A DNA stretch of 64,000 nt, from positions 587,146 to 651,145 of the forward strand of contig JBAZKQ010000001.1 in the NCBI GenBank assembly GCA_041650715.1, written 5' to 3'. This document shows, piece by piece, positions 34,463 through 56,459 of this stretch. The notes under the pieces were generated by a model. It did no database searches. It saw only the letters and a list, made by a program, of their open reading frames with translations, and had not been told where the DNA came from. The position numbers were made by a program, and so were the translations under genes. Position 1 is the first letter of the stretch. Every line of letters begins with the position of its first letter. Source of the DNA: Patescibacteria group bacterium. GTDB lineage: Bacteria > Patescibacteriota > Patescibacteriia > Patescibacteriales > UBA12465.

Positions 34463-37400
34463 TTATTTAAGCTTATTTTTTAGTTCCAGTTTTTTGATTC
34501 TAGCTTCGAGAGTATCTATTTCCTTCTGCTGGGCTTTTACCGCTTCAATCAGAGGTGCAACTAAGTTACCATACTGAACGCCCTTTGCGCCTTCAGTCCC
34601 ACTAACTAATTCGGGATAAACTTTCTCTACTTCCTGAGCGACTAAACCGAGACTTGCAGCGCCGTCCGCCTTCCAATTAAAGGAAACCCCGCGCAGTTTC
34701 ATGATTTTATCCAAGGAATTATCCAAGGTTTTAATATTTTTCTTTAAATTACGATCGGAAGAATAAGTATAAGAAGTGGCCAGTACATTGCCGACGACCT
34801 CTAATTTACTGACCGGCGTCGTTGTGCCGATACCGACGTTAGCGCCCTTGACGTTTAATTGTCGATTGCCATAAAAATAAGTTCCGGTTGTTAAATTAAG
34901 CGCGGATATAACCTCGTCGGCGATCATGCTATACACGCCCATTTCCCCCTGATTATAGCCGTCCTGCATAATAATATCATTAGAGGTAAAGCCATAGGGG
35001 GCCGAAACGGCAGTACTTGCATATACGCTGCCAATGACCTGCAAGGCAGCCCCTGGATTCGTCGTCCCAATCCCAACTTTACCCAGCGATGTAATTGTCA
35101 CTTTGTCCGTTCCGCCGGTCTGTATTTTTAAAGTATCATTCACTCCATCCGCATTAATAATTGAGTAGCCGCCGGTATTGGAAAGCAAACTTAAAGTAGC
35201 GCTACCCGAGGTAGTCGGAGCAATATATAAAACGGCACCGCCCGCTTTATTAAGCGTTACGTCATTGCTAAGCAAAGTAGTACCGGCGACATTCAAGTTA
35301 TAGCTTCCCGTGGCAGTTGTGCCGATACCGACGTTGGAGCCAAAATAAGCTTTACCATCTAAACCGATAGCCGCGCCGATAGCACCGTTATTTGTAAAGA
35401 CGATTTGATGAGTATTAAGAAAGGGCGCACCGCCATTGGTGCTATAAGCATAGCCCATACCATATTGCGCACCAAAATTATCATTAGCTGTGCTCATCGG
35501 ATATGCTTCGGATATTGACCAAATGCCCTGAACCTCAGCCGCATTATAAGTTCCATAGCTGCCTAATCTTGATGTTTTGACGGCACCCAAAACGTCAAGC
35601 GCCACGGCTGGGTTTGTCGTACCTATCCCGACTTTACCATTCACGATCAAATTAGAAATATTACCATCAATAAAAGATCCGATTTCTACGGCCGGCCAAC
35701 CAGCGTCAACATTAATTTTTAAACTTGTATCTCCTCCTCCAGGACTCAAGGCGCCATAATTATCACCGGAAACATAGGTAGTCAAATTTAAAGAATGAAA
35801 GCTCGCAGAGCTGCCGCCAGTCACTGCCGCGGAAAAATTTGCCATCCCAGCAACATTTAATTTATAGGTGCCAGGGAGTGTTGTGCCAATACCTACGCCA
35901 GTGCCATTATCAAAAATAGAACTAATGGTTAAACCCGTAGAGCTTGCCCATTTTGTAACATAATTAGTTGTGCCAGTACCGGTAACTGTGCCGCTGCCAC
36001 CAGCCGGAAGAATAAGACAGCCTTCAGCATTTCCGGAAGCGTCAATACCCGCAGGATAATAGCCTGCCCCGCAATTAGTACCGTTAGCAGCCAAGGCGGT
36101 GGCTGTGCCTGACCGCAAACTGGCCGCCGTACCGGTTAACCCGGTACCGGCTCCGCTAAAAGATGAACCGGTTATCGTACTGGAGACATTTAAAGTTCCT
36201 AAAATATAACTATTGCCGTTTACATATAATCTATAGGCGCCCGGAGTTGTAGTGCCGATACCGACATTACCGGCGCCGGCGTCACCGTTATAAATAACGC
36301 CGTTTTTAGTCCCTTCCCAGAGATTACTGGCCGCAATTAAGGTCTTAACGTACCCTGTATTAGTCAGGGCGTAATCATCGGTGCCTAAATATGTACTTGT
36401 ATAATTATGACCTGTCGCGCTTGAACCGACCGGAGCATAGGCACCAACATTAGCGATTGAAAAACTATCATTCGGAGCACCGGTGCCACCGATACCGACA
36501 TTGCCGGCAGTCGGTTGCAAGAGGACATAACTCGTAGTTCTGGTGGCATTACTTGTTCCCTGCAAAGTTAGGTTTCCGCTCGCCACATCAGAACCATTTA
36601 TAGTCGCATTATCAGAAGTAAAAGTTAAAGAAGTCGGTCCGCCCCAATTAAAGGCGGCGCCGGTAGTAAGCGTAGTGAGTGATGAAGCGGTCAAAGATGT
36701 TTGCCCAGTTAAAGTCAGGGCGGTCGCCGTAAATAAAGCGCGCTGAACTCCGCCTAAAGTTAAGCCAATTTGACTTGCGGCCGGATGATACATGCCGGTT
36801 GTCAGGTCTCCGGTCCAAGCGAAGGAAGGTGTAGAAATAAGGTCAGCCGCTTGGCCTAAAAATTGAGTATCAGAACTAACTGAACTGGTAAATTTAGCAG
36901 GGCCGGAAACATTTAGGCGATATGCACCGGGAACGGATGTCCCAACACCGACATTGCCGGTAGAATCAACATAAACACCCTCATTACCACCGTCTCCCGA
37001 TAACCAATGAGTACTTAATTGAATATTTTGGGTTGCAATATGAGAACCTAAATCATCACCTCCGGTAGATGTTCCGCAGTCAACTCCTTTTGCCGAGACG
37101 ATACCGGTCGCATCAACATATAAACAGCGATTACCGGTACCGGCGAGCGTTGAATTGGTTATTTGGCCGTTAAAATAACTTGTACCGACGACCGCTAATT
37201 TCGCTAAGGGCGAAGTGGTGCCAATGCCGACATTGCCCGCGCCGGCGTCGCCATTATAAATAATACCATTATTGATGCCACTCCAGAGAAGCGAAGTGCA
37301 AGTTTCCGCATTGCCGGAAGCATCAATCCCGAGGGGGTAATTACCCGTCGTACAATTGTTCCCATTACCGGCAAGGGTGCTGGCCGAACCGGCCGTCGAT

Positions 37401-37669
37401 GCCGAAGAGGCAGTCAAGGCATAGCTCGAAGTTGAGGCATTTCCGGTATAGGTAGTAGCGTTGATTGAACCGCCCACACCGGCCGTCCAAGTTACTTTAT
37501 CGGCATTCGCGGCAAAATTTATTTTATACCCGCTGCCGATTCCTAAGCCGGTAACAAAGTTTGGCGTAGCCGCAAGAGCGTTTTGCGAAAAAGCAAAAAC
37601 AACCAGTAGGAATAAAATCGAAGCTGGAATAAGCAGGAATTTTTTATTATTCATATTATTATTCCTCAT
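34463..37669 (-). CDS. giant secreted tail-fibre-like protein with C-terminal intramolecular chaperone (peptidase S74) domain
   Basis: Signal peptide. Repeated NVGIGTTxPxxKLxVxG motifs and the ~90-aa module shared with the genes at 46052-64000. C-terminal SDRNLKKNIKTLDNSLDKIMKLRGVSFNWK...GLVAQEVEKVYPELV matches the self-cleaving chaperone domain of endosialidase/tail-fibre proteins. Confidence 0.7.
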   Translation of the reverse strand: MRNNNMNNKKFLLIPASILFLLVVFAFSQNALAATPNFVTGLGIGSGYKINFAANADKVTWTAGVGGSINATTYTGNASTSSYALTASSASTAGSASTLAGNGNNCTTGNYPLGIDASGNAETCTSLLWSGINNGIIYNGDAGAGNVGIGTTSPLAKLAVVGTSYFNGQITNSTLAGTGNRCLYVDATGIVSAKGVDCGTSTGGDDLGSHIATQNIQLSTHWLSGDGGNEGVYVDSTGNVGVGTSVPGAYRLNVSGPAKFTSSVSSDTQFLGQAADLISTPSFAWTGDLTTGMYHPAASQIGLTLGGVQRALFTATALTLTGQTSLTASSLTTLTTGAAFNWGGPTSLTFTSDNATINGSDVASGNLTLQGTSNATRTTSYVLLQPTAGNVGIGGTGAPNDSFSIANVGAYAPVGSSATGHNYTSTYLGTDDYALTNTGYVKTLIAASNLWEGTKNGVIYNGDAGAGNVGIGTTTPGAYRLYVNGNSYILGTLNVSSTITGSSFSGAGTGLTGTAASLRSGTATALAANGTNCGAGYYPAGIDASGNAEGCLILPAGGSGTVTGTGTTNYVTKWASSTGLTISSIFDNGTGVGIGTTLPGTYKLNVAGMANFSAAVTGGSSASFHSLNLTTYVSGDNYGALSPGGGDTSLKINVDAGWPAVEIGSFIDGNISNLIVNGKVGIGTTNPAVALDVLGAVKTSRLGSYGTYNAAEVQGIWSISEAYPMSTANDNFGAQYGMGYAYSTNGGAPFLNTHQIVFTNNGAIGAAIGLDGKAYFGSNVGIGTTATGSYNLNVAGTTLLSNDVTLNKAGGAVLYIAPTTSGSATLSLLSNTGGYSIINADGVNDTLKIQTGGTDKVTITSLGKVGIGTTNPGAALQVIGSVYASTAVSAPYGFTSNDIIMQDGYNQGEMGVYSMIADEVISALNLTTGTYFYGNRQLNVKGANVGIGTTTPVSKLEVVGNVLATSYTYSSDRNLKKNIKTLDNSLDKIMKLRGVSFNWKADGAASLGLVAQEVEKVYPELVSGTEGAKGVQYGNLVAPLIEAVKAQQKEIDTLEARIKKLELKNKLK

Positions 37670-37707: not shown

Positions 37708-38277
37708 CTATTTAACAATCATCGTGCCCGTGTTTCCGCGAAAGCCCGGAATATCATCACGGAAAGAATAGGATCCGGCGGCAGGAGCGGTAAATTCTAT
37801 AAGCTTGGTTTCACCACTTAAAATCATCATTGTCAGGCCCATTAAAGATGCGTTCGGAAAAATAAAAACATGAGTATTATTATCAACCGAACTGACGGCC
37901 AAGGATATCTTCTGACCGGCCGAAACGGTAAATTCTTTTGGGCTAAATCCTTCCGCAGAAACCGAAAGTTTTATGGCGCTCGTCGGAACATTACTCGTTT
38001 CGACAACCACCTGCTGGGGGGCATCGGCAGACCCGGGCAGTTCACCTAAAGTAGCGGGTATAACCGGAACTATCGTGCTGACATCAACTCCTTCAAGAGA
38101 GGCCGTCTTTGTTTCCGCTACCGGAGAAGTAGTAGCTTTACTCTCGCCGGCCGTATTTGATTGCGTTACGACGCCGGACGGTTTAAGCCAGTTTTTATTA
38201 CTTAAAAAAGCGAATAAAATTACTACTAAAATAATCACTAAAACAGCGATTAAAATAGTTAATTTTTTATTATTCAT
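37708..38277 (-). CDS. membrane-anchored cupredoxin-like protein (Cu ligands lost)
   Basis: Paralog of the 39878-40549 protein. The C-terminal motif is YSFRDDIPGFRGNTGTMIV, versus YTFRCDIPGHAARGEVGTMIV in the paralog. Confidence 0.45.
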   Translation of the reverse strand: MNNKKLTILIAVLVIILVVILFAFLSNKNWLKPSGVVTQSNTAGESKATTSPVAETKTASLEGVDVSTIVPVIPATLGELPGSADAPQQVVVETSNVPTSAIKLSVSAEGFSPKEFTVSAGQKISLAVSSVDNNTHVFIFPNASLMGLTMMILSGETKLIEFTAPAAGSYSFRDDIPGFRGNTGTMIVK

Positions 38278-38337: not shown

Positions 38338-39888
38338 TCATTTTTGATAATAGAAATCAAATAAAACTTCATTTAAAAAGGGGGAATAAAAACTGTCCGT
38401 TTGCGCCGGAAAGTCGACGCGCAAAAAATAATTATTTTCTACCGTCGCCTTAAAAGTTTGGTTCAAATTTTGTCCGCTCGGCAGCTCTTGCCAAAAATTA
38501 TTGTCCGTCGAGAATGAAAGCTTCCCTTCCGAACAAGGATTATCGGGAGAACCTAACTTGCTGGCGGCCAATTTTTTAATAGTTATCCCCGGTTCGGCAA
38601 TAATGGCATTATAAATTAACTCACCCGGCATTCTACTCTCAAAACCACGATCAGTAAAAACCCGGTTCGTCTCCATATTGTCCTGCCTAATCGTGGCCAG
38701 CAAGACGAACTTATCGGCCGCTGCCGCGACAAGGCGGAAAGAGGCCGATTCCCCGGAATTACTAAAGATATTTTGATAATCAGCTTCACCACTAATTTTA
38801 CCATCACTATTTTGCCAAAGTTTAATGAGCCGCGGACGACCCAAGCTCGAGCTATAGATATACCAATTAACAACCCGTCCATTAGTGGCTTTGATAATTT
38901 CCGGCCTAAAACCGGTCGCCATTACCCGAAAATCAAAAAAAGTACTGATATCCGTTACCGTAGCAGCCTGAAAACGATAGGCCTCACCGCGATAAGCGCC
39001 ATAAATTACTAAATAATCAGTATCGGAACCGCCGAAGCCAAACTGCCCCAAATAAGGAGAACTAATTTTTTCGGTCTGGTCGCCGAAAATAAGCGGACTA
39101 AATTTATTGCCATCAAAAATGTAGACCCTCCCTTGATAAGCGTCGCCCTCTTTTAGAGTTAGTCCAAGCAACCAGCGGGTGTCAAGCGCGCCAATCGTTA
39201 AAGCGACCACGTCGGCGGCCTTAATTTCACCGGGCAAAGCGAGAGGCTTCCCCTGATAACTTAAATGCTTCCCCGTTTGTTCTAAACAATTTCCGCCGAG
39301 ACAGCGCCGGTCAGAAATAACGAGAGGCTCTAAAAAATCACTTATTTTATTTTGAGCTAATGAATTACTTTTAGCTAACTCCGCTTCATTTTTTAAACTT
39401 TGACCGGAAGATTCTTCTTCCCAGGTATAGCGCGGCGGAAAATAAACGGCCGCCGCCAAATCATCGCGATAAAGCGTGCTCGCCGCTGAATTTAGTAAAT
39501 AATCACTCGCGAAACTATCAAAAAACGAACTGAATATCTGCGGCTTATCATCCACAATAATCTCGGAACTTAAGCACGGAACGCCTCCGTCGAGATTATC
39601 CTGCTCAGATAAGCGGGTTTGGGACTGCTCTCGGCTTAAGATCCGTTCAGTCATCGAGCCGGAATTCGAACCTTGATTAGCGGCCGCAAAATAAGTCCGG
39701 CAGCAAAATATAGTCAAATAATAAACAGCAATTAAAAAAAGACTAAAAATAATTAAATAGCCTAAATTTAAAAAATATTTATTTTTAACAGTTTTTCGCA
39801 TAGCCCGCTTTATAGCGCTTAGACTCACTTTATGAAAATGCCCCGCTATAGAGCGGGGCATTTTATAAAAACCGAGATTATTGAACAA
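38338..39888 (-). CDS. membrane-anchored hypothetical protein
   Basis: 516 aa. N-terminal TM, no recognisable motifs. Confidence 0.35.
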   Translation of the reverse strand: MFNNLGFYKMPRSIAGHFHKVSLSAIKRAMRKTVKNKYFLNLGYLIIFSLFLIAVYYLTIFCCRTYFAAANQGSNSGSMTERILSREQSQTRLSEQDNLDGGVPCLSSEIIVDDKPQIFSSFFDSFASDYLLNSAASTLYRDDLAAAVYFPPRYTWEEESSGQSLKNEAELAKSNSLAQNKISDFLEPLVISDRRCLGGNCLEQTGKHLSYQGKPLALPGEIKAADVVALTIGALDTRWLLGLTLKEGDAYQGRVYIFDGNKFSPLIFGDQTEKISSPYLGQFGFGGSDTDYLVIYGAYRGEAYRFQAATVTDISTFFDFRVMATGFRPEIIKATNGRVVNWYIYSSSLGRPRLIKLWQNSDGKISGEADYQNIFSNSGESASFRLVAAAADKFVLLATIRQDNMETNRVFTDRGFESRMPGELIYNAIIAEPGITIKKLAASKLGSPDNPCSEGKLSFSTDNNFWQELPSGQNLNQTFKATVENNYFLRVDFPAQTDSFYSPFLNEVLFDFYYQK

Positions 39889-40549
39889 TCATTGTACCGA
39901 CTTCACCACGAGCGGCATGTCCAGGAATATCACAGCGGAAAGTATAGGTTCCCTTTTTCGGGGCGTTCCAGGACTTAACGCGTGTTTCTCCACCGGCAAC
40001 GCCAAGCGCAGTCGCAGTCAAAGCGGTGTCATCAGGCAAGAAAACGTGAGTAAAGCTATCAGTTGAAGTTAAAACAAAGTTAACCAATTGACCTTCCTTA
40101 ACCGTAAAGGTGTTCGGCACAAAACCAGCACCGCTCACTGATAATTTAACGGTATTAGCACCGGTCGGAACTTGGCTCGCAGAAATTGGAGCTGATTCTT
40201 TAGGGGCATCGGCTGAGGACGGCATAACATTCAATTTAACCGGCGTGCCTTCCGGGGTCACAACTTTATTCTCCTTTGTAACTAAGCTGGTTCCAGTCGC
40301 AACTGAAACGGACGAGGCGATAATTTCCGGAGTAGCCGTCGCCGTTGAAACGACATCCTTCGAAGGAGCGATTTCTTCAGGCGAAGTTGTCGCGTTGCTC
40401 GCTTCCTGAGTAGGAGTAGTTATCCCCCCAGTCGGCAATTGGATTTTCTTGCTTTGGCTAATCGCGACAATAATGATAATCACCACCACCGCAATAACTC
40501 CAAGCAAAATAAACACTTTTTTCTTGTTTGTTTGCATAGATTTAAACAA
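39878..40549 (-). CDS. membrane-anchored cupredoxin (plastocyanin/azurin-like blue-copper domain)
   Basis: N-terminal TM, Thr/Ser/Pro linker, C-terminal C-x2-PGH-x4-GxM copper-site motif (FRCDIPGHAARGEVGTM). Confidence 0.55.
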   Translation of the reverse strand: MFKSMQTNKKKVFILLGVIAVVVIIIIVAISQSKKIQLPTGGITTPTQEASNATTSPEEIAPSKDVVSTATATPEIIASSVSVATGTSLVTKENKVVTPEGTPVKLNVMPSSADAPKESAPISASQVPTGANTVKLSVSGAGFVPNTFTVKEGQLVNFVLTSTDSFTHVFLPDDTALTATALGVAGGETRVKSWNAPKKGTYTFRCDIPGHAARGEVGTMIVQ

Positions 40550-40566
40550 TTTATATTTTAATTAAT

Positions 40567-41151
40567 TTAACGGCTTGACGTATAATCGTACTTTACTTTT
40601 AAATTCAATCTCTGCTGTAAAAGATTCGCCTGCTTAAGTTTGCCCTGGGCGATTAACTTATAGGTTTCACCAAATTGCACAAAATTATCGGCATTGACCT
40701 CCGGTTTCCAGCCCTGGCCGACGATACTCCGCCAAGCCTGATAATCACCCGCCATAATAGCGGCATCAATCTCACTGATTTTAGTCGTCAATACTTGAAA
40801 ATCTTGCTTTAAATTTAATTGCTTTTTGATTAGATTCGCCTCTTCGACTTTACCTTGCTGCAAAAGACGATAAACTTCTGTAAATTGAGAAAAATTGTCG
40901 CTCGTAATCTTTGCCTTGAGACTTTTATCGGTAACAAGACTGCTCCAGGTAGCGTAATCATTATTCATAATCGCCTCCTCAATCGCCACATTCTTTTCTT
41001 GAATGATGGCATCGCGAGCCGCATTAGCCTCGACCATCGCTTTAACAAAGAGCGGGGTGAGGGCAGCCAAACAAAGAAGAATAAATCCGATGGCTGAAAA
41101 AATTAATAATTTTTTGTGGTCGTGGAGATAGTTTTTAAATCTCTGCGTCAT
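40567..41151 (-). CDS. membrane-anchored protein with two ~55-aa internal repeats
   Basis: DYATWSSLVTD...ANLIKKQLNLKQ and DYQAWRSIVGQ...ANLLQQRLNLKVK. Confidence 0.35.
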   Translation of the reverse strand: MTQRFKNYLHDHKKLLIFSAIGFILLCLAALTPLFVKAMVEANAARDAIIQEKNVAIEEAIMNNDYATWSSLVTDKSLKAKITSDNFSQFTEVYRLLQQGKVEEANLIKKQLNLKQDFQVLTTKISEIDAAIMAGDYQAWRSIVGQGWKPEVNADNFVQFGETYKLIAQGKLKQANLLQQRLNLKVKYDYTSSR

Positions 41152-41269
41152 AGATTTTTTTTAAATTAATTTTTGCGAAGTTATATAAAATTTAATATAT
41201 ACTAATTATAGCATTTCGCCTTTTGATTGGCAACAAGTTTAAGCAAGCCCGCTTGGTTCACCACCGTTT

Positions 41270-42556
41270 TTAGCGAAGCTGGTTCTTCTGATAATTATAG
41301 TCAAAAGACTGGTTAAAACTCGTAATTATCTTCCGGTCGTCAGTTACCAGAGCCGACTCATCGTTATTGTAGGCGCCGGCCCGGCTCCAATTATTCGTTC
41401 CGAAAAAAATCTTTTGATTATCCACAATCAGCAGATGGTAATGCAGGAAGGGATCGAGACTCTCTACCGAGCTGGAAGCTAAAGCACTTGCCTCGTCGCC
41501 ACGCGGCGCGTCACTTATAATCTCTAAATTATTTAATTGATATTTCTGCTTGGCGGCTATTAGATTCTGAAAAACCGAGCTTTTATTATATAAATTACGA
41601 TTATCGGTAATTATTGTCACTTTTACCCCGGCGCGGGCGCGGGTGATTATTTCGTTCGCCAAACCAGAATCGGTAAAATCCCAAATCATAATTCTGATTT
41701 CCTGTTTGGCGCTATGCAATAATGTATAAATTCGATTGCTTAGACTATTACCCGGTACGCCTGGACCAAACCAAACTTCATAATTAGAGCCGCCGGCCGT
41801 CATGCTTAAATCCCAGGGATTATATTTTTTATCGCTGAGTTTTTTCGGTCCCGATTCCCCCTTAGCTAAGCGCTCAAACTCTCGCCCAAAACTCTTGATA
41901 AATTCGGCGTTACTCGTAATCAAGATAAAGCTGGGGTCATACTTTTCTTGAAGTTCAGTCCAATTATAGGAACCAAAAATTAATTTCTGGTTAGCTTCCC
42001 CACGATCGATGAGCGCAAATTTATGATGCATCAAAATGGTCTTGCCACTCTTCTCTTCCCCCAAGTCTAAGCGCTTAATGTTCGCCGGCATATCGGGCAG
42101 AGCTTCGTCATGCACTTCCTTTTTTCGAAAATCAAGAACCAGGGTAACCTTAACGCCACGCTTGGCAGCCGCATAAATCGCGTCTCTGATGCGCGGCGAC
42201 TTTAAAGAGTAGACCGCAATCTCCAACGATTTTTGCGCCTGATTTATTTCCGCCTCAATCCGATCGGAAAAAACTGTTGTGCCAAGTTCGTCATTAAACA
42301 GAAGATCAGCAGAAACCGGTTCATTAGATTGGATAATACGCGCCGGTTTATTATTGGTCGCTAAATAATTAGTCACCGGCTCGGACCAGCGCCGGGTCAG
42401 CTGGGCGACGAAAAATAAAAGTCCTAAAACCAGAAAGACGAGCAGTGTAATCCGAACTGATTTTTTCTTGATAATTTTTCTAAGTGTTTTTTTAAATTTC
42501 ATAGTGTTCGCTAAAAGTATCTTTCCCGCTATCTTCCGTCGCGAAGAAAACGACAA
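41270..42556 (-). CDS. phospholipase-D-family protein (two HKD-like motifs, N-terminal TM anchor)
   Basis: First motif HHKFALIDx12GSYN (HxKx4D...GSxN). Second motif HYHLLIVDNQKIFFGTNN, with K->H substitution. N-terminal hydrophobic anchor. Confidence 0.6.
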   Translation of the reverse strand: MSFSSRRKIAGKILLANTMKFKKTLRKIIKKKSVRITLLVFLVLGLLFFVAQLTRRWSEPVTNYLATNNKPARIIQSNEPVSADLLFNDELGTTVFSDRIEAEINQAQKSLEIAVYSLKSPRIRDAIYAAAKRGVKVTLVLDFRKKEVHDEALPDMPANIKRLDLGEEKSGKTILMHHKFALIDRGEANQKLIFGSYNWTELQEKYDPSFILITSNAEFIKSFGREFERLAKGESGPKKLSDKKYNPWDLSMTAGGSNYEVWFGPGVPGNSLSNRIYTLLHSAKQEIRIMIWDFTDSGLANEIITRARAGVKVTIITDNRNLYNKSSVFQNLIAAKQKYQLNNLEIISDAPRGDEASALASSSVESLDPFLHYHLLIVDNQKIFFGTNNWSRAGAYNNDESALVTDDRKIITSFNQSFDYNYQKNQLR

Positions 42557-44195
42557 TACTGGTCGGCAAATTAACTCGCAGCAAGTTCAAAAGCGCGTCG
42601 CAGTCGGCGTCATGCAAATCCGCCCAATAATTATCCACCGCGACGAAATAGGGGCGATTAGCCAAACAGTAAGCGACTTGCAATAATAGATTATTCTTCG
42701 GACTCTTGGTAAATTTATGCGCCTTAAGGCGCCAATCTTCTTTTTCAAAAAATATTTCTTTCAATTCCGGGTGGCCGTTAACTAAAGCCGAGATGCTGGC
42801 AAAATCTTCTTGGCTAATACGACTTTTCTCCCGGCCAGCGACTACCTCGAGCAAGGTGCGTTCGCTTTTAAATTTAGGGTCAATAAAATAAAAGCTGGCA
42901 TAGTGCTGAAAAAAATCATTATAAAAATATCGTTTGTCACGCGCTTTAATAATCCAGGCCCGTCGTCCGTATTCCCCGCGTCCGCAGAAAAGAGTGGCGA
43001 GCGTGCTTTTACCGCTCCGCCGGGCGCCGCTTATTAAATACTGCTTCCCGACCTTAAAAATAAATCGTAAATTTTTATAATAAGGCGATTTCTTAAATAA
43101 TTTTACTTTCGCGGACTTAAAAATCAATTCTTTAAAGCGCGGTTTCAGGTCACGGCCGATTTCCGGTGCCGTATTTTTCGGAACCGACAAAGAAAGGCCG
43201 AAGGTAAACGGTACGGAATAGAGACCGATACGCAAACTTTCATAAAGCAGGCGGGAAAAATAAACCGTGAAAATAACTAAAGCAAATTTATCGTTCGAAT
43301 CCGTCGTGGCGATAAAGTTAGAAATCTGCTGGTCATAAACGCTAAAAATCCAACCGAAAAAGATAATCAAAATAAAGACAACGCTGGCGCCGAAGCGCAG
43401 CCAAATATCGCGGCGCACCCGGAAATACGAATCAAGATCGACGAGATTATTAAAATCATTTAGCGTGGCCCGCTCACGATGGAAATATTTAGTAAATTGC
43501 CAATCCGATAAAGTAAAGTCAACCAATTTAATTATCTTGGAATAAAAAGTCGTTTCCCGCGAAACATAATAACGGGAAATGAAATAAGCGATGCCGGCAA
43601 TAATTATATTGATAATGAGGCCCGCGACGTAAAAAATTATCAGATGAGTACTGAAAACAAAACATAAAAACAAAAGAATAAGCGAATATAATAGCCAGCG
43701 AAGCGATCCCGCCAGACTATTGGTGAATCCCATGGCGAGCAGCGGGAGATGATACGATATTTTAGCTAATAATAGCCCTTTACTGTCAAGGTTCGCCGCC
43801 GCCGCTTCAGAATTAAGAGAAAGCTTGAACCACTTTAAACGCAGATTATTAATTAATTTTATAACCAGCGTCCGTTCCAATTTGATCGCAAAATAAGAAG
43901 CAAATAAATAAATAAGAGCGCCAACGGCAATAAAAACGAAAACCCGGCTATTGCTCATGAGGCCATAAATTTGCCCGCCGTTCTTTAAATAACGATGGCT
44001 CAGCAAAATCAAAATAACTTCCAGTATTCCCTGCACCAGCAAAAAAACCAAGGCGCGGGTAATTAGTTTTTTATGGCGGCCAAAGAATCTAAAAAGAAAA
44101 GCAAAATCATCGCGCGTCGGCCAGAGCGGCGAATTCTCCATGCGCTCGCCACGGCGGCGGCGCATTAAACTAATTTTTTTTGAGTCGATTGACAT
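42492..44195 (-). CDS. ABC-exporter-like protein (6-TM domain + degenerate NBD)
   Basis: N-terminal ~300 aa with ~6 TM helices. C-terminal Walker A GARRSGKST. Degenerate signature (NNLLLQVAYCLA instead of LSGGQ) and Walker B (VAVDN, no catalytic Glu). Overlaps the RT stop by 26 nt and the PLD start by 65 nt. Confidence 0.55.
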   Translation of the reverse strand: MSIDSKKISLMRRRRGERMENSPLWPTRDDFAFLFRFFGRHKKLITRALVFLLVQGILEVILILLSHRYLKNGGQIYGLMSNSRVFVFIAVGALIYLFASYFAIKLERTLVIKLINNLRLKWFKLSLNSEAAAANLDSKGLLLAKISYHLPLLAMGFTNSLAGSLRWLLYSLILLFLCFVFSTHLIIFYVAGLIINIIIAGIAYFISRYYVSRETTFYSKIIKLVDFTLSDWQFTKYFHRERATLNDFNNLVDLDSYFRVRRDIWLRFGASVVFILIIFFGWIFSVYDQQISNFIATTDSNDKFALVIFTVYFSRLLYESLRIGLYSVPFTFGLSLSVPKNTAPEIGRDLKPRFKELIFKSAKVKLFKKSPYYKNLRFIFKVGKQYLISGARRSGKSTLATLFCGRGEYGRRAWIIKARDKRYFYNDFFQHYASFYFIDPKFKSERTLLEVVAGREKSRISQEDFASISALVNGHPELKEIFFEKEDWRLKAHKFTKSPKNNLLLQVAYCLANRPYFVAVDNYWADLHDADCDALLNLLRVNLPTSIVVFFATEDSGKDTFSEHYEI

Positions 44196-45390
44196 GCTGG
44201 CTTGATAAGAAATGTTTATAAATCGAGACTAAGGGGATGCCTTTTAACTTTTCGTTAAGAAGGCGCCGGTTTTTAGGGGTATAGGTACCAAAAAAATAAC
44301 GGGTTAAAATATGGAAGAAAGCTTCGGAAACCGCTCGGACTTCTTCGGACTTAGTCACTAACTTTTTTTGCTCGGCAATTTGCTTAAACTGTTCGTATAA
44401 ATTATTGCGCTCTCTTTTCAAGGACTTAGTGATAAAATCCTTTTTCCTTTGCTCGTCATGCACGCGGTAATAATCAAATTGTGCACTCCAGCGCTTCAGC
44501 ATCTGCTTTAGGAAGCCCGGCTCCAGCCCGATAGCACCCGCGTTAAAATTATAACCTAAAAAATTAAAAACATCGTTAGCGCGGCCCAGTCTGGTTTTCT
44601 TTTCATTAATTTTTAAACCCAGTTCTCCCGCCGCCATTACCAAATGCTCATATAAAGGCTGCAGCCGTTCCGCTTTTTGATCAAAAATAATTAAATCATC
44701 GCCGACGCGGCGATAAAAGTCGGCTCGTGGGCCCGAGTATTTATCAAAATCATCCAAATATAAATTATTAAATAGAGCGACGAGCGGGACGCCCTGAATG
44801 ATACCCACTTCCCGGTTAACGACTTTGCCGTCCTTAATAATTTTATTGCCGATAAAGAGCTTTAAAAGTTTATAGACGTCACCCTCAAAATTCAGTTTCT
44901 CGATTTTTTTGAGCAGCAATACGGGGCTGATATAATTGGAGTAATCCGTTAAATCGGCGACCAGCGCAAAATCGCGATTATGATATTTTTTATAATGACG
45001 CACAACGCTGCGCGCGGCGAAATAACTTTGGTGCGAAGAACGATAGGAAAATAACCACTCGGAAAAATAAGCGTCGAAAAAGGGTTCAACTATTTGATAA
45101 ATCGCCTGCGCTTTGACTCTTTCCTTGAGATTATAAATATAGATCTCCCGCATTTTCTGGGGATTGTTTTTTTTCGGAATCGTAAAAAGAACGGCCGGCG
45201 AAAGCTCTTTAAAGGCAATCATTTCGCGGCGCACTTCCTTAATTAATTTAGCGGGATCAACCTCTAAATCACCTTGTTTCAAACCGTCATAACCCGCATA
45301 GCGCCCGGCGCGGCCGTCTGCATCCATTTGCTCGGCCAATTTCAAATAAGCCTTTTCGAGATTATCACGGGAAATTATTTCTTTAAACAT
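44170..45390 (-). CDS. reverse transcriptase (group-II-intron-like / retron-like RT domain, no maturase or intron RNA)
   Basis: Motif 0 ISRDNLEKAYLKL. Motifs 1-2 IPKKNNPQKMREIYIYNLKERVKAQAIYQIVEPFF. Motif 2a SYRSSHQSYFAA. Motif 3 FALVADLTDYSNYI. Motif 4 GIIQGVPLVALFNNLYL. Motif 5 FYRRVGDDLIIF (VGDD in place of YADD). Motif 6 LGLKINEKKTRLG. Motif 7 FNFLGY. ATG at 45390. The ORF track extends to a TTG at 45402. Confidence 0.8.
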   Translation of the reverse strand: MFKEIISRDNLEKAYLKLAEQMDADGRAGRYAGYDGLKQGDLEVDPAKLIKEVRREMIAFKELSPAVLFTIPKKNNPQKMREIYIYNLKERVKAQAIYQIVEPFFDAYFSEWLFSYRSSHQSYFAARSVVRHYKKYHNRDFALVADLTDYSNYISPVLLLKKIEKLNFEGDVYKLLKLFIGNKIIKDGKVVNREVGIIQGVPLVALFNNLYLDDFDKYSGPRADFYRRVGDDLIIFDQKAERLQPLYEHLVMAAGELGLKINEKKTRLGRANDVFNFLGYNFNAGAIGLEPGFLKQMLKRWSAQFDYYRVHDEQRKKDFITKSLKRERNNLYEQFKQIAEQKKLVTKSEEVRAVSEAFFHILTRYFFGTYTPKNRRLLNEKLKGIPLVSIYKHFLSSQHVNRLKKN

Positions 45391-45414
45391 AAAAAAAATC
45401 AAATACCCTGGTCG

Positions 45415-45684
45415 CTACTTCTAAGCTGACCGAACCTTAACGGACGGCCATCATTTAAATGACAATGAGTCTTTCCCTTGATAAGGGAGAGATTTTCTTT
45501 TCGACTATTACATATCTAATATGTGATAGTCTTTTCGCACGGCCGTAAGGCTTTGCGATTTTTCGCGGACGTAAGTCTGCGTTTTTTCGGATTTAATTAA
45601 TTCATAAAATGCCACCGGCACTAGCGGTTTTTTTATGGCATCAACCGATTAATTCTTAATGCCTCTTTCGAGTTTTAGAAGTAG
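45415..45684. ncRNA. structured non-coding unit 1 (~270 nt) flanked by 10-bp terminal inverted repeat ctacttctaa/ttagaagtag; candidate RT-associated ncRNA
   Basis: No ORF. At least four hairpins, including GNRA-type loops (ggcc-gtaa-ggct). Contains the 12-bp palindrome tcatttaaatga. Homologous to unit 2 with compensatory changes. Confidence 0.55.
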
Positions 45685-45743
45685 TCGCCAGGATATTTAA
45701 TTTTAAAATTACTAAAAACTGTTAACTATAAATATCCTGATAA

Positions 45744-45988
45744 CTACTCCTAAGCTGGTCAAACCTTTACGGACGACCATCATTTAAATGACAATGAGTC
45801 CTCTTCTTGAGAAGGAGAGGATTTTCTTTCGCTATTGCATAGTTTACTATGCAGTAGTCTTATACGTGAAGCCGCAAGGCAACATGTATAATTCGGATTT
45901 AATTAATTCATGAGCGTCACCGGCATTAGCGGTTTTTTGCGGCGCCGACCGATTAATTCTTAATGCCTCTTACGAGTTTTAGAAGTAG
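45744..45988. ncRNA. structured non-coding unit 2 (~245 nt), tandem copy of unit 1 (~80% identity), flanked by ctactcctaa/ttagaagtag
   Basis: Same hairpins as unit 1 with covarying stems (acatat/atatgt -> gcatag/ctatgc; tctttccctt/aagggagaga -> tcctcttctt/aaggagagga). One hairpin deleted relative to unit 1. Confidence 0.55.
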
Positions 45989-46051
45989 TTGTCAGGATAT
46001 TTAATTTTAAAAATACAGAGACTTTACGATCGCTCTAATTTATTATGTCAT

Positions 46052-49000
46052 CTACCGATTAACGATAACTCCCGTTTGCGCTTGGTCATGCGCTCGCGTC
46101 GGCCAATTCTGCCAATCGTAGCGTTTGCCGATTAAACGATAAGAAATTTCCACCGCTTCGTTTGAGCGGAAAATTAATTTATTATTTTCAATAACATAAT
46201 AGACATTAGCGAATTTACCCGACGGGGTAATAAATACTTGGACATTATCATTATTATAATCAACAACTTTATGCCAGAGCCAGAGGTCGCTGCCCTCGTC
46301 TTCAAGCGCAAAATTTATAATATATTCATATTCCCGCGTCTTGGCATTAAAACGCTGAATATCTGCCTTCCCGACATATTCCTCCTTAACGCCACCGGCG
46401 ATTGAAGGCGCGAAAGTAGAATAATTAACATCATTAATATTATACAAAGGATCGATTGTCGTAGCGGTAATCTTAGTGACGGTCAAATTATTCAAGTTAG
46501 TAATATTTTTGGCACCAAAATTTACGTCACCCAGCATTGTGCCGCCGGTAAGCGGTAAATAATTACCGGTGGGCATTGAGCTGGTCGCAGCCGCAATTAA
46601 TGTTTTCACAATTCCATAATTAGCAAGAGCATAGTCATCAGTACTCAAATATGTGCTCGCATAATTATGCCCGGTATTTAATGAGCCGGCCGGAGCGGTG
46701 CCCGCGTTGCCGATAGAGAAAATATCGTTAGGAGCGGTCGTACCGATACCAACTTTACCCGTGCCTCCCGGCATTAAAGCGAGGTTAACACCCGAAGCGG
46801 TAGTAATAGAGTTGGGACCGGTTCCGGAGAAGGCTAAATCAGCACCGGCACCAGAGAGAGTAATGCCGGTTGTCCCGGCTAAGGCTAAATTGGCGGCGCC
46901 ATAAATATCACCACCGGCAATATTCAAACGATAGGCACCCGGCAGAGATGTCCCAATACCGACGTTCCCGGTAGCGTTAACAAAAACACCTTCATTACCG
47001 CCGTCTCCCGATAACCAATAATTACCAAGTAAAATATTTTGTGTGGCCGTATGGTCGCCTAAATTATCGCCACCAGTTGCCGTACCGCAATCTGTCGTTT
47101 TAGCGGAAACGTTTCCGGTCGCATCGACATATAAACAGCGATTGCCCACCCCGGATAAAGCGGTGGTAATTTGACCATTTAAATAACTGGTCCCGACGAC
47201 AGCCAATTTATAAGCCGGTGTCGTTGTACCGATGCCGACGTTGCCCAAACTTTCACTAACATAAAATAATGAAGACCCGCTTCGATTATTAATATGGAAA
47301 CCAACGTTTGTGGAATCATAACCGACGCTCATTCGTTCCAGACCGGATGAATTCAAAAATTTCAGCATTTTGTCATTGGACGTCGCGGAGTTAGATTGAA
47401 TAGCTATTTGTCCACCGGTAACCGTTAATTTGCTGCCGGGTGTTGTCGTCCCAATCCCGACATTCCCTGCTCCGGCCGCACCGTTCCAAATATTACTGTT
47501 TAAAGTTCCACCCCAAAAATTTGTTCCTCCGGCGGGCAGCGAGCTCGTTGCGGCCGCAATCAAGGTTTGAACGATGCCATAGTTAGCAAGCGCATATACA
47601 TCAGAACTTAAATAAGTGCTCGTATAATTATGGCCAGTTGCGCTGGACCCAGCCGGAGCCGAACCGGAGTTGCCGATAGAGAAAATATCGTTAGGAGCGG
47701 TGGTACCAATACCAACGTTGCCGGAAGTTCCTAATATAGTCATTCTTATATTTGCATAACCATCCGTAGAAAAATATATTGGCTTGGCAGCAACATCATT
47801 TGAAAAATATAAATCAGTAGCATTTAATCCGTATCCGAACCAACCTAATCTTATTCCAGAATTATTAAAAAATTCAGCATAAGGCGTTGCAGCTTTTAGT
47901 CCCAGCGTATGACCAACCCCTTGAATCATTGTAACAACACTGTTAGCGGAGCTGTAAACATGTAATGGATAAGCGGGGCTAGTGGTGCCAATTCCAACAC
48001 TCCCGGCAGCATTTACAAAAACACCTTCATTGCCGCCATCGCCTGATAACCAATAATTACTTAATTGAATATTTTGCGTTGCAATATGAGAACCTAAATC
48101 ATCGCCCCCGGTCGCCGTACCGCAATCCGTTGTTTTCGCGGACATATTGCCACTCGCATCAACATATAAACAGCGGTTGCCTACTCCGGATAAAGCGGTG
48201 GTAATTTGACCATTTAAATAACTGGTCCCGACGACAGCCAATTTATAAGCCGGTGTCGTTGTGCCGATACCGACGTTACCGAAAGAATTAATAAACTGGC
48301 GGGTAACGCCATTGCTTACAAAACTAAGTGTTTTATTTGTACCATCAAATAATACTTGTGCTTCTGTACCGCCTAAAGTACTTGACAAAGTGTTAACCTC
48401 AAGCGTTGTTCCATAATAAACCGAACCGCTTTCTGTTCTAAATTGGGCCGCTCTAATATTTCCGGCCACCTGTAACTTATCTATCGGAGCAGTTGTCCCG
48501 ATTCCCACATTTCCCGCTCCGGCATCGCCATTCCAAATATTTACATTCTTAGTACCTCCCCAAAAATTTGTTCCTCCGGCGGGCAGCGAGCTCGTTGCGG
48601 CTGCGATTAAAGTATTAACGATTCCATAATTTGCCAGAGCGTAATTATCCGTACTTAAATATGTATTTGTAAAATTATGTCCGGTATTTGCCGACCCGGC
48701 CGGAGCCGAACCGGAGTTGCCAATGGAAAATCTATCGTTAGGAACGGTCGTCCCGATCCCAACATTGCCGGAAGCAATAATGCGCATAGCCTCTGTTCCC
48801 TGATTTACAAAAAATGCATGCTGGCCATTAACACCCGCTTGATATTCCATTACATTAAGCGACATGCCGATACCATATCGATTGCCGGTAGAACCATTGG
48901 TAAACATGTCCCACTTTAAGTTATTTACACTTCCCGCGACACTCGAACCATAAGTACCGCCGAAGGAAACGTTTAATGGCGTCGGAGTTGATACCGATAC

Positions 49001-49843
49001 CGTAGTACCAAATAAGGCGCTACCATTAACGTTCAATAATCTTGTCGGATTCGTTATTCCAATCCCGACATTATCCGTGATTGTACTCGGATATAAATAG
49101 GGTGCTGTTCGTGTCCAACCGCCCGCTCCACCGCTAACTGAAGCCCAATCAGTTCGACAGTCATCCTGAAAACATAAACGATTAGCTTTTAAATCACCCT
49201 CGATTCCGAGTGAAACCACATCGCCGGTGCCATAAGCAAAAGGAGTCGCACCGTTATAATTCCCAAACCAAAGCGAGGTCGTCCCGACTCCGGTTAAGGC
49301 AATCGATTTATTATTAGTTAATTGTAAATCTCCTGTCGGTGCTAAATTACCAAGACTATCAAGCGTTAAAGAAGGAGTGACAACCTGCTTAATAAACCCA
49401 CTGACATTTGATAAATTTGAAATTTTGAGCGGCGCGGAAACGCAAGCACCGGATATTAAATCATAACCGGCGACACAAGAGGTGCAGGAATTGCTCGTAC
49501 AAGTATCGCAAGTGGCACAATTCGATCCGGCCGTACAATTTGAAACGCAAGCGCCGCTACAATTCGTATATCCGCTACTACAAGTTAAAGCACAGCCGCA
49601 AATATTACAGTCAAAAGCATAAGTACCATTGGCCGGATTAGAGGGACATGCGGCCGTCGGCTCGATTGTACAGGCAAGCGTATTACTGCCGCACCAAGAC
49701 TTGCCACCATCCGCCCAGGAGCATAATTCCCCGTTTTTCATCGTATCGGTAATACAACCTTTAGGCGAAGTGGTCGCAAAAACTCCGGTAGCTATGAACA
49801 GCCCGGAGAATACGACAATGGCGAGCAAAAATTTCTTCGTCAT
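46052..49843 (-). CDS. giant secreted tail-fibre-like repeat protein (1263 aa) with Cys-rich N-terminal region
   Basis: Signal peptide. Cys-rich region (~60-140). Three copies of the ~90-aa module NVGIGTTAPNDIFSIGNSGSAPAGS.NTGHNYT.TYLSTDDYALANYGIV.TLIAAATSSLPAGGTNFWGGT.N.NIWNG.AGAGNVGIGTT. Also carries the NGQITTALSGVGNRCLYVDA.GN.SAKTTDCGTATGGD module. Confidence 0.7.
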   Translation of the reverse strand: MTKKFLLAIVVFSGLFIATGVFATTSPKGCITDTMKNGELCSWADGGKSWCGSNTLACTIEPTAACPSNPANGTYAFDCNICGCALTCSSGYTNCSGACVSNCTAGSNCATCDTCTSNSCTSCVAGYDLISGACVSAPLKISNLSNVSGFIKQVVTPSLTLDSLGNLAPTGDLQLTNNKSIALTGVGTTSLWFGNYNGATPFAYGTGDVVSLGIEGDLKANRLCFQDDCRTDWASVSGGAGGWTRTAPYLYPSTITDNVGIGITNPTRLLNVNGSALFGTTVSVSTPTPLNVSFGGTYGSSVAGSVNNLKWDMFTNGSTGNRYGIGMSLNVMEYQAGVNGQHAFFVNQGTEAMRIIASGNVGIGTTVPNDRFSIGNSGSAPAGSANTGHNFTNTYLSTDNYALANYGIVNTLIAAATSSLPAGGTNFWGGTKNVNIWNGDAGAGNVGIGTTAPIDKLQVAGNIRAAQFRTESGSVYYGTTLEVNTLSSTLGGTEAQVLFDGTNKTLSFVSNGVTRQFINSFGNVGIGTTTPAYKLAVVGTSYLNGQITTALSGVGNRCLYVDASGNMSAKTTDCGTATGGDDLGSHIATQNIQLSNYWLSGDGGNEGVFVNAAGSVGIGTTSPAYPLHVYSSANSVVTMIQGVGHTLGLKAATPYAEFFNNSGIRLGWFGYGLNATDLYFSNDVAAKPIYFSTDGYANIRMTILGTSGNVGIGTTAPNDIFSIGNSGSAPAGSSATGHNYTSTYLSSDVYALANYGIVQTLIAAATSSLPAGGTNFWGGTLNSNIWNGAAGAGNVGIGTTTPGSKLTVTGGQIAIQSNSATSNDKMLKFLNSSGLERMSVGYDSTNVGFHINNRSGSSLFYVSESLGNVGIGTTTPAYKLAVVGTSYLNGQITTALSGVGNRCLYVDATGNVSAKTTDCGTATGGDNLGDHTATQNILLGNYWLSGDGGNEGVFVNATGNVGIGTSLPGAYRLNIAGGDIYGAANLALAGTTGITLSGAGADLAFSGTGPNSITTASGVNLALMPGGTGKVGIGTTAPNDIFSIGNAGTAPAGSLNTGHNYASTYLSTDDYALANYGIVKTLIAAATSSMPTGNYLPLTGGTMLGDVNFGAKNITNLNNLTVTKITATTIDPLYNINDVNYSTFAPSIAGGVKEEYVGKADIQRFNAKTREYEYIINFALEDEGSDLWLWHKVVDYNNDNVQVFITPSGKFANVYYVIENNKLIFRSNEAVEISYRLIGKRYDWQNWPTRAHDQAQTGVIVNR

Positions 49844-49861
49844 ATAAAAATTATAGCAAAT

Positions 49862-56452: not shown

Positions 56453-56459
56453 AAATTAA

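Follow-up and report, generated by a model that had tools for sequence, protein, structure and literature searches.

A reverse transcriptase, a structured RNA, a degenerate ABC-exporter-like protein, and a phospholipase D family protein form a conserved four-part module in Patescibacteria

Domesticated bacterial reverse transcriptases (RTs), including those of retrons, defense-associated RTs (DRTs), diversity-generating retroelements (DGRs), and CRISPR-associated RTs, have each yielded new biochemistry and new tools. Some retron effectors are membrane proteins. Those prokaryotic operons combining a domesticated RT with a noncoding RNA (ncRNA) and an effector that have been characterized (retrons, DRTs, and abortive-infection [Abi] RTs) are defense systems (PMC9226505, PMC8632793). 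In bacteria of the candidate phyla radiation (CPR), roughly 80% of the RTs belong to DGRs (PMC8632793). Here we describe a module of the RT-ncRNA-effector kind encoded in a 64,000-nucleotide (nt) stretch of DNA from a Patescibacteria group bacterium (contig JBAZKQ010000001.1), referred to as the window; all positions given are those of the whole window, and the genes of the module lie on its minus strand. The module consists of an upstream ncRNA, an RT, a protein resembling an ATP-binding cassette (ABC) exporter, and a member of the phospholipase D (PLD) family, a combination that is apparently undescribed. A literature search that included specialist reviews returned no description of a system made of an RT, an ABC protein, and a PLD; its coverage of subscription journals was poor, and an earlier description is possible.

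The organization of the module is similar to that of retrons. A structured ncRNA with long closing inverted repeats lies directly upstream of an RT of about 400 amino acids (aa), with which it is probably cotranscribed; within this RNA, the 5' domain is conserved and the central hairpins vary, and the candidate effector genes are found 3' of the RT in the operon. It differs from retrons in that the RT falls outside the retron clade, no conserved priming G is visible beside the 5' arm of the ncRNA, and the RNA contains a pseudoknot and a conserved 3' domain. We know of no retron with an ABC-fold effector or an outward-facing PLD effector, and the literature search likewise found none.

The ncRNA is a fourth part of the module that an earlier reading of the sequence (the original prediction) had not noted. 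It is a structured, pseudoknotted RNA located directly upstream of the RT gene, about 170 to 330 nt long across loci and 290 to 310 nt long in the window, where the 650-nt gap upstream of the RT gene is occupied by two tandem copies of about 300 nt, each closed by an inverted repeat of 30 to 32 nt. The two copies share 83% mean column identity (75% by blastn), and the differences between them are compensatory. Copy A, of about 290 nt, has a 32-nt closing inverted repeat and a 5' core (P2, the pseudoknot, P3, and P4) at 45886-45986; copy B, of about 310 nt, has its 5' core at 45580-45682, and the 3' arm of its closing stem ends about 5 to 10 nt ahead of the RT ATG. The fold z-scores of copies A and B against shuffled sequences are -7.1 and -8.5, and their scores against the covariance model described below are 99.8 bits (E = 1.6e-20) and 99.0 bits (E = 2.6e-20), respectively. 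A tandem duplication of the ncRNA is also present in loci L013 and L053. Separately, the last 24 nt at the stop codon of the upstream 1263-aa gene (46039-46062) resemble part of the ncRNA (TTAATCGGTAGATGACATAATAAA versus TTAATCGGTTGATGCCATAAAAAA, 88%); this stretch may be a remnant of a third copy or may be due to chance.

The ncRNA is under strong structural selection. In an alignment of 19 sequences from the near clade, to which the window belongs, 95.4% of the cells were paired, compared to 27 to 45% in slid controls, and compensatory changes were found in 46 of 53 pairs, including those of a pseudoknot between the strand following P2 and the loop of P4. All 19 pairs of the closing stem covaried as well. 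Because searches with nhmmer, using either the ncRNA sequence or a profile, reached only the near clade, a covariance model and a search for closing stems were needed to recover the RNA in other clades. The covariance model represented the nested pairs of the 5' core, with the pseudoknot left out, and was searched against both strands of 0.95 Mb of DNA. It produced 48 matches, 47 of which were located 60 to 270 nt upstream of an RT gene and on the RT strand, distant clades included; the remaining match was a weak off-target one. Across the family, the pseudoknot was 99.6% paired, with covariation in six of its six pairs and at least 12 sequence variants. In most loci, a closing stem of about 11 to 31 bp encloses 160 to 350 nt and ends 0 to 25 nt ahead of the RT start. 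The layout is similar to that of a retron RNA: the 5' and 3' domains are conserved, the central hairpins vary, and a long stem closes the whole. After the 5' arm, AAAAC is conserved, but a G is not. Rfam searches of the whole window at gathering thresholds and of the 41.0- to 46.2-kb region at an E value of ≤1 returned only a tRNA elsewhere and microRNA-like chance matches on the long stems, and we regard this pseudoknotted, covarying RNA as a candidate Rfam family.

The three proteins encoded downstream of the ncRNA are found together in every locus that is long enough to show them. In seven family members taken across the range of identity, the RT, ABC-like, and PLD genes were all found together, with different flanking genes. 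Searching species-representative genomes with the RT only recovered 61 loci in which the ABC-like gene and then the PLD gene directly follow the RT gene, in the same order and on the same strand, wherever the contig allows; all of these loci come from metagenome-assembled genomes of the CPR/Patescibacteria type, a few of them under other labels. The reverse search, in which metagenome contigs were fished by using ABC-like motifs, recovered 49 loci, with an RT upstream in 46 of the 46 that had enough DNA and a PLD downstream wherever possible. An exhaustive profile hidden Markov model search for the ABC-like family in 1.84 billion representatives identified about 90 members, below which there were a few weak distant relatives or fragments (E values of 1e-26 to 1e-11) and then, from an E value of about 1e-10, ordinary ABC exporters. 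Neither this search nor the motif-fished loci with enough DNA yielded a member of the ABC-like family without an RT. Each of the three proteins is represented by 60 to 100 database clusters of equal length, and their pairwise identities over 86 loci are correlated with each other (r = 0.91 to 0.93; Mantel test, 0/999). As many as three complete modules, paralogous and divergent and each accompanied by an ncRNA, occur in a single small genome; in genomes with two or three copies, these are 34 to 63% identical. These results show that the ncRNA, the RT, the pseudo-ABC protein, and the PLD constitute one obligate four-part module, inherited together and specific to CPR/Patescibacteria.

The original prediction had proposed that both membrane proteins are obligately coexpressed with the RT, and the constant order of the trio in about 110 loci bears this out. 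It had also offered the alternative that these are simply envelope proteins in a shared super-operon; this is rejected because the trio stays together while the flanking genes differ between clades and because the proteins codiverge. A broader version of that alternative holds that ordinary envelope proteins share an operon with an unrelated RT by coincidence or that the RT belongs to a DGR acting on giant surface proteins. The module is flanked by giant surface proteins, DGRs predominate among CPR RTs, and between 25.7 and 64 kb every gene has the same orientation, all of which would be expected under this explanation. However, the co-occurrence data refute a coincidental linkage, no template/variable repeat was found in the 64-kb window (the ncRNA region has no match of >30 nt there apart from the tandem copy), and the RT carries the QGxP...N motif of group II-type RTs and not the DGR signature. 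This explanation is largely excluded, and we assign it next to no probability.

We tentatively read the module as a new retron- or DRT-like RT system with a membrane-complex effector and a function in conflict or defense, although we stop short of calling this reading probable. Its main rivals are a machine that handles nucleic acids across the envelope and a pair of proteins that act on lipids.

The RT lacks an endonuclease or DNA-binding domain. The catalytic D, xGDD, K, and LGY positions are kept in 99 to 100 of 100 family sequences, and motif C, which is an unusual R-V-G-D-D in the window, reads xVGDD across the family; with all of the motifs of an active polymerase, the protein is predicted to be an active-type enzyme. 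The family is discrete, in that single-sequence E values fall from 1e-65 to 1e-14 beyond it. The solved structures nearest to the family profile are the GsI-IIC group II intron RT (1e-33) and Cas6-RT-Cas1 (5e-29), with more distant matches to DRT9 (3e-17), DRT2 (1e-13), G2L4 (7e-10), and retron Ec86 (3e-6). Similarity scores of this kind suggest that the RT is group II intron-like, of the group II-like (G2L) type as defined operationally by the absence of an intron RNA. G2L and CRISPR-associated RTs are its nearest relatives by sequence, and, as in G2L RTs, there is no intron ribozyme. The RT is not G2L4, and it differs from these relatives in forming a discrete family and in having an xVGDD motif C instead of YADD, its own ncRNA, and fixed membrane partners. 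A group II intron as such was rejected. There was no Rfam intron match at the gathering threshold or at an E value of ≤1, the RT scored 115.6 bits (2.6e-33) against TIGR04416, which is under the equivalog cutoff of 300, and there is no room for intron domains V and VI downstream because the next gene overlaps the RT gene. The unusual VGDD active site occurs in what appears to be a group II lineage resembling the thermostable RTs.

DRTs and Abi RTs of the unknown group (UG) that have ncRNAs, such as DRT2 and DRT9, resemble the module in combining a domesticated RT with a dedicated upstream ncRNA, but the module RT matches their structures weakly and the ABC-fold and PLD partners are absent from those systems. 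The best PADLOC match of the RT was RT_UG26 (E = 1.9e-35, 120 bits), which covered profile positions 47 to 326 of 398 and is therefore partial, and which tied with a generic RT model. UG26 has been reported to have a Vsr-like endonuclease as its partner (PMC9226505), and no such gene is present among the neighbors of the module. A UG38 model was not among the 25 of 34 PADLOC matches listed, and the only retron RT model among the top matches was RT_II-A, at 9e-7.

The group II ancestry of the RT could also indicate a selfish mobile retroelement, in which the ncRNA and the RT would form a retrotransposing unit carrying the membrane genes as cargo. The terminal inverted repeats of the RNA, its tandem duplication in three loci (including the window), and the presence of several module copies in some genomes are in keeping with this possibility, as is the observation that the window and locus L001 share a LigA-GatA-DsbA backbone but differ in where the module, along with an adjacent gene for a 194-aa protein, is placed relative to it. 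However, the divergence of the copies within a genome leaves no recent identical ones; there is no ribozyme, endonuclease, integrase, or Rfam intron match; synteny is kept within clades; and there was a single match in 2.9 million viral contigs. A selfish element is therefore largely excluded, and we consider it very improbable.

The 567-aa protein was originally described as an exporter-type domain with six transmembrane (TM) helices joined to a nucleotide-binding domain (NBD) that keeps Walker A, lacks the LSGGQ signature and the Walker B catalytic Glu, and probably does not hydrolyze ATP. The architecture was recovered by structure prediction, by Foldseek, and by a family profile. The AlphaFold2 (AF2) model (predicted local distance difference test [pLDDT] score of 82.7; predicted TM-score of 0.76) consists of six long TM helices (residues 42 to 337) and a degenerate NBD (residues 356 to 566), and its top full-length Foldseek matches were MsbA, BmrCD, TM287/288, TAP, TmrAB, and PglK, with E values down to 8e-18. 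TM-scores against exporter structures were 0.6 to 0.7 at 13 to 16% identity, and the structural and profile matches included the lipid flippases MsbA, PglK, and ABCB4. A profile of 54 family members matched the solved structures of Pgp-1, MsbA, and TM288 over the transmembrane domain (6e-10 to 5e-8) and the NBD of PCAT1 (1e-5); the Pfam match of the single sequence was below threshold (15 bits versus a cutoff of 28).

The absence of hydrolysis motifs is also a property of the family as a whole. The window copy carries GARRSGKST (residues 390 to 398), NNLLLQVAYCLA, and VAVDN (D521-N522). Over 102 distinct family sequences, the Walker B Asp (D521) was found in all 100 that cover this position (two are gapped), and the position of the catalytic Glu was occupied by Asn in 94 and never by Glu. 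The LSGGQ signature, the H-loop His, and the Q-loop Gln were absent from all of these sequences; the signature position reads x-x-[FL]-[AL]-[LIV]-[QH], and no His follows the β-strand IIVF[SA]. The claim about Walker A holds only for the window copy. Of the 102 family members, 69 have the canonical GxxxxGK[ST] and 86 have GK[ST], and the motif is wholly gone in the very divergent member from locus L124, so that Walker A is not a constant of the family. Judging from these motifs, nucleotide binding may survive in most members, but canonical ATP hydrolysis by this NBD cannot occur. Canonical ATP-driven alternating access is not expected, because the catalytic Glu is replaced by Asn and the LSGGQ signature, the H-loop His, and the Q-loop Gln are lacking.

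The family shares with type I (in newer nomenclature, type IV) ABC exporters the full half-transporter architecture, a Walker A motif that most members retain, and a Walker B Asp that is found wherever the position is covered. Known degenerate-site ABC heterodimers retain one competent site, whereas the module protein would have none. Its strongest conservation lies in the cytoplasmic extensions of TM3 to TM6 and in the linker to the NBD, including the stretches ISYHLPLL, RETTFYS, DSYFRVRRDxWLRF, and YFSRLLYES..GLYSVP, and selection seems, from these alignments, to act mainly at the cytoplasmic face. Among the distant relatives, P0392 proved to be an ordinary exporter in a glycosyltransferase context, and P0390 was uninformative because it is located at the start of a contig.

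Two divergent loci are of interest in relation to this protein. Locus L124 (1-3921) contains a very divergent but complete module, in which an RNA closed by a stem lies upstream of an RT of 386 aa (VGDD), an ABC-like protein of 535 aa that lacks Walker A, and a TM-anchored PLD; Pfam gave no match for its RT or its ABC-like protein. In locus L125 (1709-4905), a related RT, which scores 180 bits against the RT profile of the family and has the motif YGDD, is convergent, with a 4-nt overlap, with a catalytically intact ABC exporter that has Walker A, an LSGGQ-like signature, the Walker B DE, and an H-loop. This exporter ranks with the ordinary ABC proteins most closely related to the pseudo-ABC family. 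This single locus may represent a sister or ancestral arrangement.

The PLD protein has a K/R-rich N terminus, one TM helix, and two PLD lobes. It matched Pfam PLDc_2 at 6e-40 in two stretches, and its AF2 model (pLDDT of 93.5) matched two-lobed PLDs in Foldseek with E values down to 6.5e-21, including 7e0m (a 388-aa phospholipase D), PLD3, vaccinia F13, PssA, and PLD1/2. The best matches of the family profile among solved structures were Zucchini/MitoPLD (3e-17), NucT (4e-16), and Nuc (7e-14). The protein had been described as a TM-anchored PLD with an intact first HKD motif and a K-to-H change in the second, and this description applies to the whole family. In the window the motifs read MHHKFALID...GSYN and FLHYHLLIVD...GTNN; motif 1 is H-x-K-x4-D in 90 of 91 sequences (MHHKFxxxD...GSxNxT), and motif 2 is H-x-H-x4-D in all 88 sequences that cover it (FLHxHxxxxD...GTNNWS...NDE), the other 3 being gapped there. 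Because the motifs are conserved in 88 to 90 of 91 sequences, the K-to-H change is, on this alignment, a fixed family character under selection and is neither decay nor a local mutation. The protein is thus a PLD superfamily member, by fold and homology, with a derived second motif. By sequence it appears to be of the nuclease type, and we regard it, with its invariant HKD plus HxH active site, as a putative phosphodiesterase.

Every member of the PLD family has a K/R-rich N terminus followed by one strongly hydrophobic helix, with net charges of +5.9 on the N-terminal flank and +1.1 on the C-terminal flank, and the N-terminal side was the more positive one in 46 of 46 members. By the positive-inside rule, an N-in/C-out topology is therefore predicted, with the catalytic domain facing outward. 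The lobes begin about 15 residues past the TM helix in the AF2 model, which would place them at the membrane surface. The original prediction had stated that an extracytoplasmic PLD domain clustering with cardiolipin synthases, together with ABC-like proteins that are widespread without RTs, would speak against a role in abortive infection; the extracytoplasmic location is indeed predicted, but the ABC-like protein was never seen without an RT, and the PLD is of the Nuc/NucT/Zucchini type. The curated cardiolipin synthase models TIGR04265 and ClsB gave scores of 23 bits (cutoff of 290) and 16.6 bits (cutoff of 281), and the scores for phosphatidylserine synthase family models were likewise far under their cutoffs. 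The NCBIfam nuclease and DrmC models also scored far under their cutoffs, with 87.8 bits for NucT (cutoff of 297) and 54.4 bits for the DrmC equivalog NF038319 (cutoff of 133). PADLOC DrmC models matched at 1.8e-25, but no Drm partners or other DISARM genes were found near the module. Zucchini and PLD3/4 are among the types that gave the best sequence matches; Zucchini and PLD3 are also N-terminally TM anchored, and PLD3, a single-stranded DNA exonuclease, is similarly two-lobed and located on the noncytoplasmic side. Distinctive of the module PLD are the fusion of its two lobes within a single chain and the invariable His in place of the second Lys.

Many CPR bacteria probably do not synthesize phospholipids themselves, and it is conceivable that the ABC-like protein and the PLD form a lipid-acting pair. 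The former would be an MsbA-like, ATP-independent scramblase or scaffold, and the latter would remodel or harvest phospholipids, e.g., those of the host, with the RT and the ncRNA in a regulatory or chaperone role. The flippases among the closest structural matches of the ABC-like protein; the matches of the PLD fold to PssA, PLD1/2, and 7e0m; the deposition of its best sequence match, MitoPLD/Zucchini, as a "cardiolipin hydrolase"; the position of the lobes at the membrane surface; and a PAP2 lipid phosphatase 3' of the module in L001 are all consistent with this idea. On the other hand, it leaves an invariant, intact RT and a covarying ncRNA, translationally coupled in every locus, without a reason; the synthase models score far below their cutoffs; and the PAP2 neighbor is found in one lineage only. 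We consider a lipid-acting pair improbable, though less so than a selfish element.

The preferred defense reading can be formulated as follows. The ncRNA would be cotranscribed with the RT, bound by it, and probably partly copied into complementary DNA (cDNA), the template being the central hairpins, which vary and lie between the two conserved domains. The resulting cytoplasmic complex of RT and ncRNA (or cDNA) would be the sensing or regulating part. The ABC-like protein would form a dimer, and the complex would dock on its cytoplasmic face, which is made up of the pseudo-NBDs and the highly conserved intracellular helical extensions. No longer a pump, the ABC-like protein would serve as a scaffold or transducer in the membrane, holding the PLD and controlling it, with the catalytic lobes of the PLD outside, close to the membrane surface. 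A changed state of the RT-RNA or cDNA complex, caused, for example, by an infecting phage or some other signal of invasion, would then switch the complex in the membrane and release the phosphodiesterase activity of the PLD on nucleic acid or on membrane phospholipid, with a conflict or defense function such as exclusion or abortive infection as the outcome. The rare and patchy occurrence of the module, with several divergent complete paralogues per genome, looks like the pattern typical of specificity-driven conflict systems, and the sensor/effector pair of an abortive-infection system that was first suggested is plausible.

Several observations weigh against this reading. Pfam and PADLOC scans of 268 immediate neighbors returned housekeeping and envelope genes (cupredoxins, sigma factors, pilins/T2SSE, RNase III, RecG, GatA, and LigA) and no defense-island signal; the PADLOC matches among them were generic (helicases, DprA, ABC ATPases, Fic, and metallo-β-lactamase [MBL] proteins), and a defense island was rejected. 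The module is also in conserved synteny within clades, as would be expected of cell machinery that is inherited vertically rather than of a mobile defense cassette. To our knowledge, the effectors of known RT systems do not work as outward-facing phosphodiesterases. The topology of the PLD is a prediction from the positive-inside rule, and the cDNA, the trigger, and the protein-protein contacts are inferred. A classical cytoplasmic nuclease effector fits poorly with an outward-facing PLD and the lack of a defense-island context, and the same two points call for caution about a defense function in general.

Secreted, membrane-tethered, and luminal nucleases belong to the Nuc/NucT/Zucchini/PLD3 type, and the predicted outward orientation of a PLD of this type raises the possibility that the module is a trans-envelope nucleic-acid machine through which episymbiotic CPR cells, rather than defending themselves, interact with their hosts or carry out some other function at their surface. 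In one version, a cDNA or RNA-DNA product made by the RT from the ncRNA would be threaded out through the ABC-fold dimer, driven by polymerization or by nonhydrolytic nucleotide binding, and trimmed by the outward PLD; in another, the ectonuclease and the channel would import foreign nucleic acid that the RT then processes. The exporter fold is fully kept over 567 aa, with Walker A in most members; in the near clade, pilus genes and genes for giant surface proteins and cupredoxin-like exoproteins surround the module, and the genomic context resembles that of housekeeping genes; and a related RT adjoins an intact ABC exporter in L125. However, there is no obvious energy source for transport because the ATP hydrolysis motifs are missing across the ABC-like family, and type I exporter cavities are not known to us to pass nucleic acids. 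In addition, a module that is rare in CPR and multicopy in some genomes is a poor fit to a basic physiological role, and the link in L125 is a single convergent gene pair. We judge a trans-envelope machine unlikely, albeit less so than a lipid-acting pair.

A more general proposal is that the module represents a new class of RT machine that couples cytoplasmic reverse transcription to an event at the outer face of the membrane and lies outside the retron, DRT, DGR, and intron categories. An ABC-fold conduit might receive RNA-templated DNA, or the RNA itself, or let it pass, and the PLD might process it as an ectonuclease; alternatively, the dead ABC protein might serve the RT ribonucleoprotein as a mechanical transducer with which an enzyme outside the cell is switched. 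This proposal is doubtful, with perhaps a slightly better chance than the trans-envelope machine alone, but if true it would describe a cross-envelope RT system specific to episymbiotic CPR bacteria. The module would add another family to the domesticated bacterial RTs, with partners for which we found no precedent among RT systems, namely, a catalysis-dead ABC exporter fold and a predicted outward HKD/HxH PLD. It offers a testable case of an ABC fold reused as a nonpumping scaffold or transducer and is one of few CPR-specific multicomponent systems open to heterologous reconstitution.

The coordinates of the module and its closest neighbor are collected in Table 1. The motifs quoted by the original prediction were all located in the window sequence, and its three overlapping open reading frames (ORFs) correspond to 44170-45402 (RT), 42492-44195 (the 567-aa protein), and 41270-42556 (PLD, longest ORF), but some starts and overlaps needed correction. 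The ORF from TTG 45402 is the longest one for the RT; its start is most likely the ATG at 45390, which gives the length found in most close homologues. The ABC-like protein starts at the same place in homologues, and its 26-nt overlap with the RT, as originally claimed, recurs in homologues. The PLD assignment stood, but its reported length of 428 aa corresponds merely to the longest, TTG-initiated ORF; the conserved start is the ATG at 42502 (MKFKK...), which agrees with homologues and yields a protein 100% identical to database protein P0064. As a consequence, the overlap between the ABC-like and PLD genes is 11 nt (ATGAAATTTAA) and not 65 nt, as is also the case in homologues.

Table 1. Positions of the module and adjacent features in the window
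Feature	Position	Strand	Evidence or remark
ncRNA copy A (distal)	45722..46010	-	Closing inverted repeat, fold z-score, covariance model match, covariation
ncRNA copy B (RT-proximal)	45395..45704	-	Fold z-score, covariance model match, homologous RNAs upstream of RT at other loci
Reverse transcriptase, 406 aa from ATG 45390 (most likely start)	44170..45390	-	Pfam RVT_1 match, 6.9e-16
ABC-exporter-like half-transporter, 567 aa	42492..44195	-	AF2 model, Foldseek, family profile
Walker A GARRSGKST, residues 390-398	43002..43028	-	Canonical in window copy
Walker-B-like strand FVAVDN	42630..42647	-	D521 kept, Asn in catalytic Glu position
PLD family protein, putative phosphodiesterase, 410 aa	41270..42502	-	Pfam PLDc_2, AF2, Foldseek, family profile
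Predicted PLD signal-anchor TM helix, residues 18-36	42395..42451	-	9 K/R residues ahead of helix; positive-inside rule
HKD motif 1, M158-H-H-K-F-A-L-I-D166, canonical	42005..42031	-	H, K, and D kept in 90/91
HKD motif 2 variant, F352-L-H-Y-H-L-L-I-V-D361, His for Lys	41420..41449	-	H354, H356, and D361 in 88/88 covering sequences
194-aa TM-anchored repeat protein; clade-specific neighbor, noncore	40567..41151	-	Adjacency in near-clade loci
Promoter-like site ahead of 194-aa gene	41205-41233		11/12 match with TG extension

Clustering of the neighboring genes revealed no fifth family-wide gene and only clade-specific synteny: the 194-aa protein was found in 17 loci, a pair of extracytoplasmic function (ECF) sigma and anti-sigma factors in 6, and RNase III, T2SSE, and MBL genes in 5. 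The 194-aa protein adjoins the module in 21 fetched loci (17 without duplicates), all in the near clade, and has no Pfam match. Its N terminus contains a TM helix, two repeats (DYxxW...NFxQF...GKxxxAN) are found within the protein, and its gene is downstream of the PLD gene in most near-clade loci and upstream of the ncRNA in L014 and L027. Judging from an 11/12 consensus match, the gene seems to have its own promoter; in the promoter scan the overall number of sites was not above chance, and this was the only noteworthy one. In another clade (L008, L032, L035, L038, L057, and L073), the genes downstream of the PLD encode an ECF sigma factor and a TM protein, about 255 aa long, that is likely an anti-sigma factor. 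In L010, L061, L064, L067, and L068, a TM-anchored protein with the MBL fold that matches PADLOC "RTasMBL" is encoded just upstream of the ncRNA on the opposite strand; this gene is confined to one clade, is divergent to the module, and is part of a conserved RNase III-T2SSE-MBL synteny.

The window also contains genes for LigA, GatA, a DsbA-like protein, cupredoxin-like proteins, and giant surface proteins. Two TM-anchored cupredoxin-like proteins are encoded just downstream of the module (37708-38277 and 39878-40549, minus strand), and Cupredoxin_1 is the commonest Pfam family among near-clade neighbors (12 of 140 genes). Five very large proteins of 846 to 2196 aa with recurrent GNVGIGTT-type repeats are encoded at 34463-37669 and 46052-63874 (minus strand); one ends in a Peptidase_S74 intramolecular chaperone domain of the tail-fiber type, another has Laminin_G_3 domains, and similar giant proteins lie beside the module in many near-clade loci. 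A phage origin was rejected, since the only match of the RT in IMG/VR was to one contig and the window contains no phage structural genes except for the S74 chaperone domain on the giant fiber-like protein. An ORF with a weak LAGLIDADG_3 match (25706-26377, minus strand) lies beside the DsbA-like gene, and an unusually long tRNA of 87 nt is encoded at 18597-18683 (minus strand).

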